Shown here: positions 53,318 through 64,000 of the stretch, in pieces
How the letters are laid out: each line of letters starts with the position of its first letter
Position numbering within the stretch: position 1 is the first letter of the stretch
NCBI RefSeq assembly: GCF_030684315.1
Contig: NC_081363.1
Span: forward strand, 62,438,312-62,502,311
Reading direction: 5' to 3'
From: Stegostoma tigrinum
Taxonomy: Eukaryota
Length of the DNA stretch: 64,000 nt
Position numbers and translations under genes: made by a program
The notes under the pieces: generated by a model
Database searches by the model: none
What the model saw: the letters and a program-made list of their open reading frames with translations, nothing else
Told to the model about the DNA's origin: nothing

Positions 53318-53341
53318 GCGGGAGTAACTATGACTCTCTTA
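53318..53341 (+). other. 24-nt 28S rRNA fragment (R2 target upstream sequence, -27 to -4)
   Basis: GCGGGAGTAACTATGACTCTCTTA matches the known R2 target GGCGGGAGTAACTATGACTCTCTTAAGG^TAGCCAAA. Confidence 0.95.
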
Positions 53342-53461
53342 TGAGGTCGCATATGCCCACTATGACGTTTTGACGTATTTTTGGCGCATAGTGTGTGTCG
53401 TGCCTCCCCGTTGGCCCCGCCGGTAAGCCCAGTAGTCCTGGCTGCTGGGTGACCAAACGAC
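53318..53461 (+). ncRNA. HDV-like self-cleaving ribozyme of the R2 5' UTR
   Basis: P1 (G)GCGGG/CCCGCC 53416-21; P2 GTCGT 53397-401/ACGAC 53457-61; P3 GCC/GGC with L3 TCCCCGTT; P1.1 GG 53422-23; P4 GCCCAGTAG/CTGCTGGGT; J4/2 GACCAA. Confidence 0.85.
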
Positions 53462-53688
53462 CAGAAAAAGCATGTGACGGCCGTGGTCTATACAGACCAA
53501 TCCTCAAAAAACCAGTATGGTTTTTCCAGTTTCACTGGAGCAGTCTGGCTGGGGAGCATCCCAGATAAACAACCCCCCCCCGCCCCCCCACAGCCTCGTC
53601 CACAACCGCGGGCTGTGATAAGTCATTAGGTTGTACATGTTTAAAACCCGCAACAAGGTCCATCTCGGTCCAGGCCGAGACAGCGACC

Positions 53689-56600
53689 TTGAGACGTTAC
53701 CTCCTACCTTACATGGAGCTGAGACCGGTCACCCCTCCCAGGGGGCCGGCTCAACCTGTAACGGATGCCATAGATAACGTTGCAGAAGGCACCATAAGGG
53801 CAGCCCACCCTACGGTTGAGACAAGCATAACCACCCAAACCTTCTACAACCAAGGTTATCGAGACATGAAGCAGGGCACAGACGAAAAAACGGTAAATGA
53901 GACTGGCGATGAAACAGCTGATGCAACTGTCTTCATGGAAGGAGTTGTTATCGAGCCAGTGTGTGACAGAACATCCGTCTCGGAGGTAATCATCCACTAT
54001 CCCGTCGATGGGCTATTCTGTAAGGACTGTGACACCCTCTTACCCACGGTGAGCCTGTTCAAGATCCATATGACTAAAGTGCACGGAATAAAGAACATCC
54101 GAACAAAATGTTCATGCTGCGATAAGGCAGGAGAATACCATTCAATAGCCTGCCATTATCCCAAATGCAAAGGAACGAAACAACCCCCAACCGGGGACTT
54201 TGCATGCAGCGCGTGTGATCAACGGTTTTCAACACAATCAGGCCTTGGTCAACACGAGAGGCACAGGCAACCGGTTCTACGGAATGAGAAATGCCTCAAA
54301 CCAGCACCCAAAGTCAAGGGCGAACCTGGGAGAAGCGACCGCGTATGGTCACAGTAGGAGGTGGCACTCCTGAGGGAATTGGAGGCGAGATTTGCAGGAT
54401 GCAAATTTATAAACAAATCCATCGCAAGCATCCTTAAAACCAAAACACCAAAGCAAATCTCAAACAAGCGCAGACTCCTGGCAAACACCCCGACAGAGGT
54501 CCAGACCATCTGCGAGCCAACGATAGACTTGCACAATTCTGAGGCAGAGAGTGACCAGGAGAATTCTGATGATCAAGCCCAACGCCAAAGAGCCAGCCGA
54601 AAAACACTGGCTTCGACCTCTAAACATCGGGACGTAGATAACCAACTTACACAAGCTGAGGAGCTCTTGAGCGCAAGGAAGGACCCGGACACGCTTGCCC
54701 TCGGAATCAGACTAGTGGAAAGTATTACCGACCTACTAATCAATAGTAGGAAAAGACAGGACAAAAACAAGAGGCCTCAAAAAGATTGGGCCAAGAAGGA
54801 CAAAAAGCCCGGTAGCAATACCGGAGCCAAAAAACGGTGAGCAGCACGTAAAGCGCTGTTTAGAGCAACACTACGGCTTTACAAAACCAACCAGCGTCAA
54901 CTAGCTCGCGAGATCATGGGGGCGCCGACCACATCCGCTTATCCTCTCTCAAAAGAGGAATTGGAGACATGTTTCCATGAGAAACTGTCTGCACCAAACA
55001 AGAAATCGAACATAAATAAGTATGCCCCATACACTGGCAAAGTCGATGACGGGTCCTTGATGAAACCCATACAGGTAGAGGAGGTTGAAGCGGCCAGCAA
55101 GGGAATAGATGAGAACAGTGCCGCGGGACCAGACGGCCTGAAACTGCAGGACATAAGAACACTCCATGAGCAGGAGGAAACTCGTCTACCCCGCCTCTTC
55201 TCCTTGTGGCTAAAGTCAAGCACGATCCCCGATTCACTAAAAAAGAGTCGAACGGTCCTGATTCCTAAGTGTGAGGATAAGGAATGCTTGAAAAGCATTG
55301 ATAACTGGCGACCAATAGCCATCGGTCCAATGCTGCTCCAGCTGTTCACGAAAATAATGGCAAAATGCCTGAGTGAAACAGTCGAAATAAACCCCTGGCA
55401 AAAACAGTTTCTAGCAGCCACTCCCAGATGCAATGAAAACATTGTTATCCTCGAAAATATCATCAAGGGAGCAAAGCACAATCGTAAGGACCTCGCAGTT
55501 GTCTTTGTCGATCTAGCAAAAGTGTTCGACTCGGTTGGGCACAAACTATTGATCAAATCTCTGCAAAGGATGAAACTACCCAAAGCCTTTGTAAGTCTCA
55601 TTGAAGACCTATACACTGGCAACACAACAGTGGTGGAAGGGAACGGGAACATAACCATCCCAATAACCATTGAGAGGGGTGTAAAGCAGGGCGACCCACT
55701 CTCACCAATACTATTTAACATTGCTTTGGATCCGTTGGTGTGGTCTTTGGAGAGGGCCAACTCAGGGGTCTCCATGCCCCTGGGCGGCAGAAGAGTCAAC
55801 TGCTCGACTTTGGCCTTCGCGGATGACATCGCCCTTCTAAGCGACTCACATACTGGTATGGCTGGGAACCTGAAGCTACTCCAGGCATACTGTGACCATA
55901 CGGGCCTCAGTATAAACACAGCGAAGACGAAGGGATTCCACTTCACTTTTAAAAGGAAAACCTTCTTGTACAATCACTTCGCAAACTGGAAGCTGAGGGA
56001 CGAATCCATAGCCTACACACCCCCAGGTGACACCGAGAAATACCTGGGTGCCCGCATCGATCCATGGGCAGGTGTGGCAGAAGGGGAGTGGGAGGAGAAG
56101 CTTAAGTCCTGGGTTAAGGGAATACAGGCAGCACCTCTGCGACCACAACAATGGCTGGAAATCCTAAAAGTACATGTCATCTCCCAATTGTACTTCCATC
56201 TGATCCTGACAGAAGCATCACAGGCTACTCTCATAAAGCTGGACCAAATAATCTGCAATGCCACCAAAGAATTCCTACACCTACCACCTCATATCGCAGA
56301 TGGAATGCTATATGCTAGCAACAAGAACGGCGGTCTAGGCGTCCCAAAACTGGAAGTGCAAATCCCATCCACGATTGTTCGCAAACGCGAGGCACTAAAC
56401 ATGTCCAGTGATGTGGTCATTTGGGCCTCCTTTCAATATAAAGGAGAGAGCAACACAGAGACCGTTGCGGGACTGCGTGAGCTCAAGGTCCTCAAGGAAA
56501 TTGAAAATTTCCAACCTAGTAGCCGCAGCAGCAGCGAGGGGAAAATCAACCAGATGACCACCATCCAAGACATGATGCCGGCACTCCAGAAGGCAAATGC

Positions 56601-57357
56601 GGGATGACCAAAATCACCCATTAGGTATTCAGGCTGGAGGGAGTGGGAATTCAAAAAATGGCAAAAGCTGGAATGTCAAGGGGCAGGCATCCAATACTTT
56701 AGGGACGACAAGATCTCTAATTCTTGGACGAAGGCCGGAGTACAGCAAAAATCCTCTAGATTTATTAACAGCGTGCTCTTGTGGTGTAATCTATACCCGA
56801 CAAGAACCACATTATCTAGAGGTAGGCCTAACCGAAACAAATTATGCCGAAGGTGTGAGATGGCAAACGAAACCATATCACACATCTCAGGATGCTGCCC
56901 ATTCGTAAAAAATGCTCGGATAAAACGCCATAACAAGATCGCTGACCAGTTGCAGAAACATGTCAATAAGCACGGCTGGACATCGTATGTGGAGCCCAGA
57001 CTGTTTGACAAAAATGGCTCCCTACGGAAACCTGATCTCATATTTAGAAAAGACCAGAAGATCGAGGTTGTAGATGTCACAGTGCAGTACGAGAATGACA
57101 GTAAAGCACTGGAAACAGCATGGCGAGAGAAACAGGAAAAGTATAAACACCTGAATGCCGAGGTCACGGAATTGACGGGAGGTGTGGTGCCCAGATACTT
57201 TGGCTTCGTGATGGGCGCACGAGGCAAGTGGCTAGATATGAATAACCGCCTCATGAAATTCCTCGGCATCGAGAGATACGATACATTCACCCAAAAGACA
57301 TCAAGGCTCACTCTGTCACTGATGCTCGAACTCTTACAACTCTTCAGTGACAAGTGA
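53689..57357 (+). pseudogene. R2 protein (ZF-ZF-ZF-Myb-RT-RLE), single frame with three premature stops
   Basis: ORFs 53689, 54361, 54916 and 56773 share one frame; stops at 54355, 54838 and 56605. Motifs CKDC..H..H, CSCC..H..C, CSAC..HERH, RVWSQ*EV..KTPKQISNKR, SAAGPDG, WRPI, GVKQGDPLSP, LAFADD, KYLG, CRRC..HISGCC, RHN, RKPDLIF..VDV..KQEKY. True start uncertain. Confidence 0.95.
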
Positions 57358-59580
57358 GCAAAAACCGCAAACGGTGAGGTAAGATCCTCCACCGAGACAG
57401 AAGCAGGCCCACATAAGCCTTACAAAGCCAGTAACATCAGTAGGGCCCCGCTGATAATGACATAACAACCAGCCTCATATAACACCAGTATCACCTGGTC
57501 CTTGGTCTGTGGTGATGCTAAAGAGTACACAAACATCGACGAGCGATGTAAAGACTCGGAAAAGGCACTTCCTGGAGTGTTCCAAAATAGCCAATATTAC
57601 TCTTAACTGACCACTAGCGTATGCCACATCGAATCAGGTAAGCTTGCAATTTCAGTGAAGCGAAGACTGAAAATAAAACCCAGTTTCCCGCAACCAGCTC
57701 CATCGGTGTTTAAATTTACGGTACCGTACTGCCTTAACTGACCCCAAAAGTGTTAATCCACCTCTGGACATCAACCATACATTTACCTGTCATCTGATCA
57801 GGTAGAGAATCTCTGTGCTTATATTTGAATAAATTTTGGTTTGCTAATAGACTCACTACATAATACCAGTGTTGTAATCAACAAATATGTAAATCCTAGA
57901 TACAGGTTCTATTTAAATGTCACCAACGAATACTGCAAAAAAGACCCAAATGTTCAAAATCTGGTTCCTGTGGTAGTGCTATTGGTTTCTCTTGCAAGAA
58001 TAACCCATTTAACACCATCTATACCCTCTACTGTCCTGTTAATTTCTTATCTAATTAGAAACTTTTCCACGTAAACCGACAATTCATTACCTTTCCTTCA
58101 TTCTCTATTGAGGCACCTTGTCAAATGCTGTGCTTAATTGCGTCATGACGTACTGTAACTAGCACAGCAAGACATATTGAGACACTCACCGCAACCAGAA
58201 TATGAGGATGGGAGTTCCCGGCACGTCAGCTTTTCTCAATGATGGCTTGCTAATAATTTGTTATTCTTGCAAAAAAAAACTTTCGCTCTCAATGTGTGTA
58301 AAATGAAGCTTGGAAACGTGAAAAAGAAGTGTTTAGGAAATTAACTACTGCTTGCATTTGGGATGAAATTACGCAATGATATGGTTTGCTCATTGAAAAT
58401 CAACCAAATATTGCATATGTCTCTGCACCTTTGCCTTGGAAATTATAAAGAACTTTCAATTACGTGAAGAGCGCTGTCTTGTACTATTTTACCCTGCTCA
58501 CCCATGGTTGCCTTTTCTTCATTGCATCAATATGATCAGTGAAGGCAGGGTACTTGCCCATCTGTTCGTCGCAATGCAAGAACAAAACCATCTGCTCCGC
58601 ATCGCATGCCAAGTAAATAGCAATTGCCATTGTATGCTGTACAACATTATATCTGTAAGGGCTCTGACTTGTAAATTTGGAAGTTTTTTTTCATTAAATC
58701 CACTTTTTTGATATTATGGAATCTTTTGTCAGAAATGAGAAAGCCACTATAATTAATTGGGCTCAGTGTTTCCTCCTTGGTGCAATGACATTGACAGAGT
58801 TTTCGCCACAGTACTGATGCAATTAGAAAATTCTTGCATCCGAAGATTTCACCCAGTCACCCTTTCTCCACTGCTGGGGATGTATTATGGTTTGGTGGAG
58901 CATGTTAGGTTTGTAGGGGTGAAGTGGGACTGACATTTGTTCCCAATTGCATGAGCTGTCTAGACACTAGATTACAGTTTTGTCCTATCTCCCACCTTCC
59001 ATAAATAAAAGAGTATTTCTTGCTGAGCTGCTGTTACTAGAAGTATTAACATAAGTTCAGTAAAATCAGGCCTTGTAAACACAGCATAGTGAACTACAGT
59101 TATATTAAACTATTGGGCTGAGATTGATGGATACAGAGCTGCAAAACCCAACTGACACGAATGGAGTGATTGTGGTTGCAATATAAGCTTTAAGCATTTT
59201 CATATACAGAGCTCCACTGTCCTGGTGGCTATATATTTTTTTTCAAATACTAACTGTACAGCGTAGAGTGTTCATTCACTTGAAACAATAAATAAAAAGT
59301 TCTGCTAAGATTATAAAATGCTCAAGCAAAACACTAGGGACTTCTTGAAACTCTGAAAATTTTGCTTCATACTAGAGTAAAGTTACACTACTCTTGGGGA
59401 CAAACTAAAGAGTTTCGGAAATGGCCAATCAACTAAATACAGCCAATCCATAATGTTTTCTTTAAATTCCTTAATCGGAATAAATGATATCACATTTTAA
59501 AGGCCACTTAGCACCTCTGGCAGAATGAACATTTCTGGTCTAGTGACCCTTCTTCAGAACACAGGTCTTTGGACCAGAAA

Positions 59581-61051: not shown

Positions 61052-64000
61052 TGATGTCTCTGATCAGGTTTTTGGGATCCTGAAGGGGGAGAGGGAGCAG
61101 CCCCAAGTCGTGGTCCACATTGGCACTAATGACATAGGTAGGAAGAGAGATGGGGATTTAAGGCAGAAATTCAGGGAGCTAGGATGGAAGCTGAGAGCTA
61201 GGATGAACAGAGTTGTTGTCTCTGGTTTGTTGCCTGTGCCACGTGCTAGTGAGGCGAGGAATAGGGAGAGAGGAGTTGAACACGTGAACACGAGAGGAGT
61301 TGAACACAGGGATGGTGTAGGAGGGAGGGTTTTGGATTCTTGGATAATTGCGGCTCTTTCTGGGGCAGGTGGGACCTCTACAAGCAGGATGGTCTTCACC
61401 TGAACCAGAGGGGTACCAATATACTGGGGGAGAAATTTGCTAAGGCTATTAGGGTGGGTTTAAACTAATTCAGCAGGGGGATGGGAACCAAAATTGTTGT
61501 TCGACTATAGAAAAGGTTGAGAGTAGGGTGGTCCGAAATAAATTTTCGGGGACGCAAGATGGCACCGGCAAGCAAGAAGTTGGTTTGCAGTGTGTCTACT
61601 TCAATGCCAGGAGCGTCCGGAATAAGGTGAGTGAACTTGCAGCATGGTTTAGTACCTGGGACTTCGATGTTGTGGCCATTTTGGAGACATGGATAGAGCA
61701 GGGACAGAAATGGTTGTTGCAGGTTCCGGGATTCAGATGTTTCAGTAAGAACAGAGAAGATGGTAAAAGAGGGGGATGTGTGGCATTGTTGGTCAAGGAT
61801 AGTATTACAGTTGCAGAAAGGATATTGGGGACTCGTCAACTGAGGTAGTATGGGCTGAGGTTAGAAACAGGAAAGGAGAGGTCACCCTGTTGGGAGTTTT
61901 CTATAGGCCTCCGAATAGTTCCAGAGATGTAGAGGAAAGGATAGCAAAGATGATTCTCAATAGGAGTGAGAGAGACAGGGTAGTTGTCACGGGGGACTTC
62001 AACTTTCCAAATATTGACTGGGAACACTATAGTTCAAGTACTATAGATGGGTCAGTTTTTGTCCAATGTGTGCAGGAGGGCTTCCTGACACAGTATGTAG
62101 ATAGGTCAACAAGGGGTGAAGCCACATTAGATTTGGTACTGGGTAATGAGCCTGGCCAGGTGTTAGATTTGGAAGTAGGTGAGCATTTGGTGATAGCGAT
62201 CACAATGCTGTTATGTTTACTTTCGTGATGGAAAGGGATAGGTGTATAACACTAGGCAAGAGTTATAGCTGGGGGAAAGGCAATTATGATGAGATTAGAC
62301 AAGATTTAGGGAGCATAGAATGGGGAAGGAAACTGCAGGGGATGGGCACATTAGAAATGTGGAGCCTATTCAAGGAAAAGCTCCTGTGTGTCCTAGATAA
62401 GTATGTACCTGTCAGGCAGGGAGCGAGCTGTAGAGTGCAGGAACCGTGGTTTACGAAGGAGGTGGAATCTCTGGTCAAGAGGAAGAAGAAGGCTTATGTT
62501 AGGATGAGATGTGAAGGCTCAGTTAGGGCACTTGAGGCTACGAGGTAGCCAGGAAAGACCTAAAGAGAGAGCTCAGAAGAGCCAGGAGGAGACATGAGAA
62601 GTTGTTGGCAGATAGGATCAGGGAAAACCCTAAGGCTTTCTATACGTATTGAACGAATAAAAGAATGACGAAAGTAAGATTAGGCCCAATCAAGGATAGT
62701 AGTGGTAAGTTGTGTGTGGAGTCAGAGGAGATAGGGGAAGCGCTAAATGAATATTTTTCAACAATATTCACTCTAGAAAATGACAATGTTGTCGAGGAGA
62801 ATACTGAGATATAGGCTACTAGACTAGGTGGGATTGAGGTTCACAAGGAAGAGGTATTAGAAATCCTTCAGAAGGTGAAGATAGATAAGTCCCCTGGGTC
62901 AGATGGGATTTAGCCTAGGATCCTCTGGAAAGCCAGGGAGGAGATTGCCGAGCCTTTGGCATTGATCTTTAACTCGTCATTGTCTACAGGAATAGTGCCA
63001 GATGACTGGAGGATAGCAAATGTGGTTCCCCTGTTCAAGAAGGGGAGTAGAGACAACCCTGGTAATTATAGACCAGTGAGCCTTACCTCAGTTGTTGGTA
63101 AAGTGTTAGAAAAGGTTATAAGGGATTGGATTTATAATCATCTAGAAAAGAATAAATTGATTAGGGATAGTCAACATGGTTTTGTGAAGGGAAGACCGTG
63201 CCTCACAAGCCTTATTGAGTTCTTTGAGATGGTGACTAAGCAGGTGGATGAGAGTAAACCGGTTGATGTGGTGTATATGGATTTCAGCAAGGTGTTCGAT
63301 AAGGTTCCCCACAATAGGCTATTGTGCAAAATGCGGAGGAATGGAATTGTGGGAGATATAGCAGTTTGGATCGGTAATTGGCTTGCTGAGAGAAGACAGA
63401 GGGTGGTAGTTGATGGGAAATGTTCATCCTGGAGACCAGTTACTAGTGGTGTACTGCAAGGGTCGGTGTTGGGTCCACTGCTGTTTGTCATTTTTATAAA
63501 TGACCTCGATGAGGGTGTAGAAGGATGGGTTAGTAAATTTGCAGACGACACTAAGGTTGGTGGAGTTGTGGATAGTGACAAAGGATGCTGTAGGTTGCAG
63601 AGAGACATAGATAAGCTGCAGAGCTGGGCTGAGAGGTGGCAAATGGAGTTTAATGCAGACAAGTGTGAGGTGATGCACTTTGGTAGGAGTAACCGGAAGG
63701 CAAAGTACTGGGCTAATGGTAAGATTCTTAATAGTGTAGATGAGCAGAGAGATCTCAGTGTCCATGTACACAGATCCTTGAAAGTTGCCACCCAGGTTGA
63801 CAGGGCTGTTAAGAAGGCATACAGTGTTTTAGCTTTTATTAGTAGAGGGATTGAGTTCTGGAACTAAGAGGTTATGGTGAAGCTGTACAAAACTCTGGTG
63901 CGGCCGCACTTGGAGTATTGTGTACAGTTCTGGTCACCGCATTATAAGAAGGATGTGGAAGCTTTGGAAAGGGTGCAGAGCACATTTACTAGGATGTTGC
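61052..64000 (+). mobile_element. Young CR1 LINE: ORF1 esterase C-terminal part plus ORF2 APE-RT, with frameshifts and stops; continues past the window
   Basis: ORF1 VVVHIGTNDIG and DGLHLNQRG (SGNH-type); APE YFNARS, AILETW, GDFNFP, TLDLVL; RT PGNYRPVSL, YMDFSKVFDKV, GVLQGSVLGP, FADD. Confidence 0.96.

Follow-up and report, generated by a model that had tools for sequence, protein, structure and literature searches.

Introduction

The R2 elements with a self-cleaving RNA at their 5′ end are among the closest described systems to the locus considered here. It has been reported by Eickbush, Burke and Eickbush (2013, PMC3774820) that the 28S rRNA supplies the 5′ strand of helix P1 in these ribozymes, that cuts were assayed with −28 as the most frequent site, and that tandem 28S duplications are explained by end-joining without annealing. 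That is to say, a chimeric P1 with a cut at −28 is already published, and the ribozyme itself is ordinary. Inside rDNA the 28-base leader is invisible, so that the position of the cut has been deduced for the most part from in vitro assays and from duplications, which are rare. Moreover, the non-rDNA copies of R1 and R2 in Drosophila are not the source of the rDNA elements, and off-site R1 copies of the melanogaster type are preceded by an upstream 28S stretch of 7–28 bases, to which downstream 28S is sometimes added (Stage and Eickbush 2009, PMC2718515). A non-28S insertion is recorded for B. mori (PMC10499050), and the flatworm R2-lineage elements R2NS-1_SMed and R2NS-1_CSi have lost their specificity and lie at non-28S sites (Kojima et al. 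2016, PMC5035012). For the R2Tg element, the off-targets match 4–5 downstream bases and 28S −25 to −19 (Edmonds et al. 2025, PMC12222951).

The window (that is, the whole 64-kb stretch of shark DNA analysed, from a host genome of 3.2 Gb) carries an HDV-like ribozyme motif whose P1 is completed by 28S sequence. With high probability this feature forms the 5′ end of an R2 copy that is dead and lies outside rDNA, most likely copied from an rRNA–R2 co-transcript that was cut at 28S −28 by the predicted HDV-like ribozyme. The novelty lies in the family of dispersed copies, which varies a system already known, whereas the ribozyme belongs to established knowledge.

Predicted Ribozyme Head of the Window Copy

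All the HDV helices that the first-pass annotation had drawn are in place, each at its proposed position (Table 1), and so is the J1/2 hairpin. The order of the elements, P1, P2, P3, P1.1 and P4, is that of the nested double pseudoknot of HDV-like ribozymes, and C53453, together with A53456, occupies the position of the catalytic residue in J4/2, four bases ahead of the P2 3′ strand. A descriptor search had been proposed as a check; with a custom-written HDV descriptor, the sole match on both strands of the window was 53318–53461, and 40 sequences of 64 kb resampled with a dinucleotide Markov model gave 0 matches. Plain folding, beyond whose reach the pseudoknots lie, gives a 5-bp P1 and P4 with z = −3.3 (0/200 shuffles). 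Rfam, which holds no matching ribozyme model, returned no gathering-level match in the window and just a weak LSU fragment at the locus.

The 28S origin of the P1 5′ strand was likewise borne out. The tag corresponds to 28S −27 to −4 of the same genome (reference L063) at 24/24 bases, starting at −27 as had been noted, and no other exact match of at least 12 bases to that 28S region occurs anywhere in the window. CCCGCC pairs in the proposed register with 28S GGCGGG (−28 to −23), which predicts a cut at −28. In the window copy P1 has five pairs rather than six, with T53317 standing for G(−28); the paired G at the cut site is found in 14 siblings and in the rDNA copies. Impaired cleavage of the window copy, with U53317 opposite C53421, is plausible from this pairing model, although it would hardly matter because the copy is dead, with three in-frame stops. 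Self-cleavage of the window ribozyme and its mechanism are predicted from sequence and by analogy with tested relatives.

Table 1. Features of the window copy and its junctions (positions in the window).
Feature	Position	Strand	Remark
GGAGTA in host flank	53293–53298	+	25 bases ahead of junction; resembles 28S −24 to −19
Host T in place of 28S G(−28)	53317	+	terminal P1 pair absent from window copy
28S-derived tag	53318–53341	+	gives P1 5′ strand (53318–53322) and 5′ strand of second chimeric helix (53324–53332)
P1 5′ strand GCGGG	53318–53322	+	28S-derived (−27 to −23)
Second chimeric helix, 3′ strand, damaged	53350–53356	+	siblings CATAGTTGC; two bases lost
J1/2 hairpin	53358–53393	+	CACTATG (53358) / CATAGTG (53387); plain folding
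Segment P2 5′, P3 5′, L3, P3 3′, P1 3′, P1.1 GG	53397–53423	+	register over 91 copies; descriptor
P2 GTCGT / ACGAC	53397–53401 / 53457–53461	+	
P3 GCC / GGC	53402–53404 / 53413–53415	+	
L3 TCCCCGTT	53405–53412	+	C53406–C53407 pair with GG 53422–53423 = P1.1
P1 3′ strand CCCGCC	53416–53421	+	
P4 stem-loop	53428–53435 / 53442–53449	+	folding; G-C to A-U change in younger subfamily
J4/2 and P2 3′ strand	53450–53461	+	predicted catalytic C53453, A53456; P2 3′ = 53457–53461
Decayed single R2 ORF	53569–57357	+	three zinc fingers, Myb, RT, CCHC, restriction-like endonuclease
R2 3′ UTR	57358–57587	+	ends ...TTCCAAAA; end common to the copies
TAGCCAA = 28S +1 to +7	57588–57594	+	target likeness, copied rRNA tail, or both

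Element Body and Flanks of the Window Copy

The ribozyme heads a decayed full-length R2 copy with three zinc fingers, 4,270 bases long (53318–57587) and located outside rDNA. In-frame stops fall at 54355, 54838 and 56605 of its ORF, in which Pfam matches to RT and C2H2 mark the reverse transcriptase and the zinc fingers. The copy does not occupy the conserved 28S site: its flanks are non-rDNA, and the DNA downstream of TAGCCAA is single-copy. No empty site was found for the insertion, whose downstream flank is unique in the genome and lacks coverage in the runs of two other organisms, and the copy has no target-site duplication. The 28S stretch that the upstream GGAGTA resembles (−24 to −19) is likely a contact site of the R2 protein. 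Contigs of run X1, which may be the same sample, cross both junctions with 0 differences and at single-copy depth. Elsewhere in the window, a separate RT open frame occupies 62914–63867 (Pfam RVT_1, E 4e-32).

R2 Elements in the rDNA Arrays

A search for interrupted 28S targets gave 40 sites, of which the small rDNA contigs hold 25 and the chromosomes 15. The array units divide into four full-length three-finger R2 copies, ten 5′-truncated ones, one tiny remnant, six non-coding derivatives and a second R2, present in four copies; since 15 of these 25 interrupted units hold autonomous-type insertions, the family is resident at the 28S site. In the four full-length rDNA copies the frame stays open for 1297–1317 codons; they are 87% identical to the window copy, and the array copies compared are 99–100% alike. 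The best PDB matches of the L141 protein are the vertebrate R2 entries 9nl2, 9dou and 9nl3 (E 1e-220 to 1e-217), and its alignment to 9nl2 starts at the first zinc finger. R2 lineage A is characterized by three N-terminal zinc fingers, CCHH, CCHC and CCHH, and the three fingers read from the translations fit this pattern. In one array copy (L144), an internal duplicate starts at −28.

No rDNA copy of the older subfamily to which the window copy belongs was seen, the four core matches on small rDNA contigs being the younger variant; it is the tree (see below) that suggests an rDNA location for the master of the older subfamily. In addition, the six non-coding derivatives in the arrays (L148, L149, L156, L160, L179 and L180) are about 800 bases long and consist of the ribozyme and the 3′ end, and 18 short derivatives with a 3′ end lie outside rDNA (e.g., L181, L184, L187 and L190). 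The non-coding derivatives as a group measure about 800–900 bases and form several subfamilies with different J1/2 loops.

28S Tags of the Dispersed Copies

Candidates were obtained with a 5′ query (116, of which 40 were scored), a 3′ query (194, of which 40 were scored) and a core-only pattern (76, of which 4 were on rDNA contigs). Tags were compared in 81 non-array copies: the window copy, L164, 39 other scored 5′ matches and a further 40 matches to the core. Left out were the 5′-truncated L120 and four core matches, of which contig C56 holds three and C55 one.

Among the 81 copies, the tag starts at −28 in 14, at −27 in 8, at −26 in 7, at −25 in 5, at −24 in 6, between −23 and −14 in 29, and at −29 or −30 in 2. 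The tag runs far upstream in three copies (132, 357 and 468 bases), five copies are tagless, and two start calls are spurious. Tags that reach −28 end there in 14/19 cases, compared with a stop rate of 3–30% at each position from −14 to −27, and in copies with an intact 3′ end (n = 61) 13/17 stop at −28. Short overruns of 1–2 bases number two among 16, which fits chance (p = 0.39 against 25%). The first set of dispersed loci was chosen by a query that contained the tag; in the 40 loci that the core-only pattern added to it, the mode is −27 (6) versus −28 (2), and −27 is also the start of each of the four near-full tags in the younger subfamily. The −28 edge is softer than a wall. A single junction at −27 proves little by itself, and it is the family, with starts piled at −28 and almost none past it, that supports the earlier proposal that the window junction is the 5′ end of a self-cleaved RNA.

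It could be argued that the edge at −28 is a reverse-transcription or nuclease stop at the foot of a stable P1 instead of a product of self-cleavage, since genomic ends alone would look alike after a cut and after a stop, and three copies do extend far upstream. This is very improbable. A reverse transcriptase arriving from the 3′ side would be expected to pause on entering the helices, not past the last one; the catalytic C is conserved between subfamilies 13% apart; and the cut of relatives at −28 was assayed (PMC3774820).

At the scored junctions no target-site duplication of at least 4 bases was found, the exception, seen by eye, being a 13-base duplication at L212. Tandem duplications of the tag, in two or three copies, are seen at off-target junctions in L096 (contig C20), L089, L087 and L107, and L096 has 357 bases of upstream 28S and a non-28S 3′ flank. 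Contig C56 (L045–L049, L052 and L193) holds a group of rearranged copies, at least six and nearly identical to one another, whose R2 3′ UTR is joined back to the 5′ coding region, and these were probably amplified as DNA. Contigs from the runs of two other organisms show the same R2 family 3′ end, followed by non-28S sequence.

Conservation of the Ribozyme and a Second Chimeric Helix

The register of the ribozyme is kept in the 84 parsed copies of the 91 examined (7/91 unparsed), with P3 GCC/GGC in 78 and P1.1′ GG in 77; the predicted catalytic position is C in 82 of the 84 parsed copies. In the younger subfamily one P1 pair has become G-U and one P4 pair has gone from G-C to A-U. Of the changes in the helices, the one in P4 is two-sided and the G-U changes in P1 and in the J1/2 helix are one-sided, and few independent lineages are represented.

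Besides P1, there is a second 28S/element helix, missed by the first-pass annotation, in which 28S −21 to −13 pairs with CATAGTTGC. The element strand reads CATAGTTGC in 44/91 copies, CTTAGTTGC in 17/91 and CGTAGTTGC in 9/91. This helix is kept across subfamilies, although the loop that it closes is wholly different between them. A 2-base deletion near 53353 breaks the helix in the window copy; siblings have it.

Choice of Target Sites

Among 62 copies with a 3′ end, 20 lie at one position in the reverse-transcriptase gene of a LINE, which we take to be CR1-type (a label for the translated flank). There are 4,333 exact empty copies of this site in the genome, and the tag joins there at the nick of the known empty site. 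When the CR1-type site is counted once, the first five positions of 41 independent 3′ flanks have the bases T, A, G, C and C in 40, 35, 27, 18 and 17 cases, respectively. GGAGT occurs within 30 bases upstream at 16/52 independent sites, compared with 12/676 background windows; it is absent from 36/52 sites, and some of the matches could be leftovers of duplicated tags. The distance from the start of GGAGT to the nick is 25 bases at the LINE site and in the window, which exceeds that in 28S by one base. Targets are chosen loosely rather than at random: the pattern is observed, and the R2 protein would be the agent behind it. With array copies and a target motif, the family falls outside the non-specific R2NS class.

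The flanks of the copies are unrelated, and therefore retrotransposition rather than DNA duplication is indicated, as had been argued from the window junction. A piece of rDNA moved or duplicated as DNA might account for the 28S bases on both sides of the window copy (24 and 7), yet this route is effectively refuted by the recurrence of the same RNA-defined ends amid dozens of unrelated flanks and by the joining of the tag at the nick of the CR1-type empty site.

Age, Tree and Selection

A tree built from 46 near-full-length copies places the older ones in a near-star, whose internal branches are tiny, and has a ladder of younger dispersed copies leading to the array elements. The distance to the older-copy majority is 3.7% for the window copy and 2–5% for most of the roughly 36 copies. 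Private coding changes in 36 older dispersed copies are distributed as 410, 347 and 375 over the three codon positions, with pN/pS of 0.83 and 40 stops; that is, the dispersed copies decay near-neutrally. On the backbone (older-copy majority versus L141), the corresponding numbers are 64, 40 and 215, a ratio of about 0.11, which is rough. Since the private changes are near-neutral and the backbone is constrained, selection acted on a master lineage, and the dispersed copies are its fossils.

An escape of the older subfamily from rDNA has to be weighed here, in which the 28S tag would have become fixed in the element and dispersed copies would have given rise to new ones by way of read-through transcripts of the host, cut again by the ribozyme. 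The absence of the older subfamily from the arrays as seen, the burst formed by about 36 full-length copies of similar age, and the complete ribozyme that a copy retaining G(−28) would hold (the dispersed copy L003 folds with z = −4.5) all lend themselves to such an escape. It is nonetheless improbable: the older near-star attaches to the lineage leading to the rDNA copies, the terminal changes are near-neutral, and the tags vary at the 28S/element join, with tandem duplications of 28S and upstream 28S stretches of up to 357 bases among them, which is what would be expected of rDNA junctions.

A Second R2 Lineage and Probably Captured Fragments

The second R2 has two zinc fingers, and its protein is closer to entry 8gh6, presumably the silkmoth R2 protein. 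Its array copies, among them L150, L153 and L154, have open frames of 1152–1177 codons and their own HDV-like head. Of the 33 matches to this lineage, 29 lie elsewhere than on the small rDNA contigs. Among 20 dispersed copies compared (L221–L240), 18 have a 3′ end, which TAGC follows in 17. The tags of its full-length dispersed copies start at −28, −25, −24 or −21; the cut site is ambiguous, with tags starting at −28 or −25. As an rDNA-confined control the second R2 was rejected. It is dispersed too, and therefore leakiness is not particular to the three-finger protein.

Eleven chromosomal pieces carry 24–758 bases of downstream 28S, ten of them without upstream 28S, which points to co-transcripts as templates. 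The reading of these 28S-tailed pieces as R2 read-through insertions was weakened, as 4/10 and L164 touch hammerhead-bearing repeat arms. A small repeat that has a hammerhead-like core flanks, as inverted arms, 7/20 copies without an R2 3′ end, together with L164 and L166; 59/61 of the 3′-intact copies have no such flank, and the window copy is not among the flanked pieces. The sandwiched R2 or R2-28S fragments (L093, L188, L191, L192, L198, L205, L217, L164 and L166) were probably captured by another reverse transcriptase, possibly from rRNA co-transcripts. Because some pieces lie between hammerhead-repeat arms, long 28S-flanked pieces are no proof of R2-driven insertion.

Proposed Route to the Window Copy

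The preferred reading, a copy made from a self-cleaved co-transcript, can be laid out in steps. Intact R2 stands at the canonical 28S site in the arrays and is presumably co-read with rRNA. The ribozyme P1, whose register requires 28S −28 to −23, would then cleave as in the tested relatives, and the cut RNA would keep 28 rRNA bases. The R2 protein may at times nick a loosely matching chromosomal site; the pattern observed at such nicks is T at +1, usually TAG, and often GGAGT some 25 bases upstream. At an off-target site, the leader from 28S would have no annealing partner, and it would be end-joined and left as a visible tag, probably trimmed by 0–14 bases (here by 1). The new copy would lack the rDNA promoter and enter the near-neutral decay observed.

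Comparison with Known Systems

The shark copies resemble the R2 ribozymes of Eickbush et al. (2013, PMC3774820) in the 28S P1 strand, the predicted cut at −28 and the tandem 28S duplications at some junctions. The junctions described there lie within rDNA, where the leader anneals and is hidden, whereas dozens of shark copies outside rDNA display the end of the RNA. The second helix (28S −21 to −13) is not described in the passages cited from that paper, figures aside. In the passages cited from PMC2718515, off-locus R2 of Drosophila is seldom found and often incomplete; about 43 near-full-length dispersed copies were recovered from the shark. The R2NS elements (PMC5035012) are like the shark copies in lying at non-28S sites, and unlike them in that the shark family is still 28S-resident with a loose motif. 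Short derivatives made of the ribozyme and the 3′ end are known as the R2 SIDEs of Drosophila (PMC3414825), and six comparable ones lie in the shark arrays; the 18 short shark copies with a 3′ end outside rDNA set the shark apart from the SIDEs described in that source.

Judged by eye, the family has been listed before. Hassan et al. (2026, PMC13188248) include in their Table S2 an element, R2-1_STig, that agrees with L141 at the start of its ORF (1317 characters) and at the start of its 5′ DNA, with a few differences; it is given there as a 28S-embedded element and is not among the proteins assayed. The term 'off-target' occurs 0 times in the main text of that paper, and the passages cited here make no mention of dispersed shark copies. 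In the same table, the catshark R2 row shows a short 28S stretch after apparent non-rDNA, and the upstream-28S cell of the white shark is empty; these rows may be dispersed copies in other sharks. A literature search with limited coverage of subscription papers gave no account of genome-wide dispersal of a vertebrate R2 that is still rDNA-resident.

It is somewhat probable, in our judgement, that shark R2 is a naturally leaky site-specific element, in which both lineages and their non-coding passengers are rDNA-resident, full-length copies have been shed chromosome-wide throughout its history, and one CR1-type LINE site serves as a second target; its copies would then be the first genome-scale in vivo footprint of where an R2 ribozyme cuts and of the off-target code that a vertebrate R2 protein follows, neither of them described in the literature searched. 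The dispersed starts are likely a natural record of the RNA cut and of R2 straying.

Close relatives of this protein, the R2 of birds and turtles, are in development for gene insertion, for which the shark offers a natural off-target set. The off-targets of engineered R2Tg (PMC12222951) have the same downstream and upstream features as the shark sites, that is, the shark set agrees with the cell-culture logo, with the difference that the shark motif lies one base further from the nick in the window and at the CR1-type site. R2Tg off-targets make up <1% of reads in cultured human cells, whereas the shark copies are a natural germ-line record, which shows that a LINE present in many copies is able to serve as a decoy. 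According to a 2026 review (PMC13580325, in the passage cited), a binary division of elements into site-specific and non-specific ones is probably too simple, and the shark genome is a countable intermediate case between the two.
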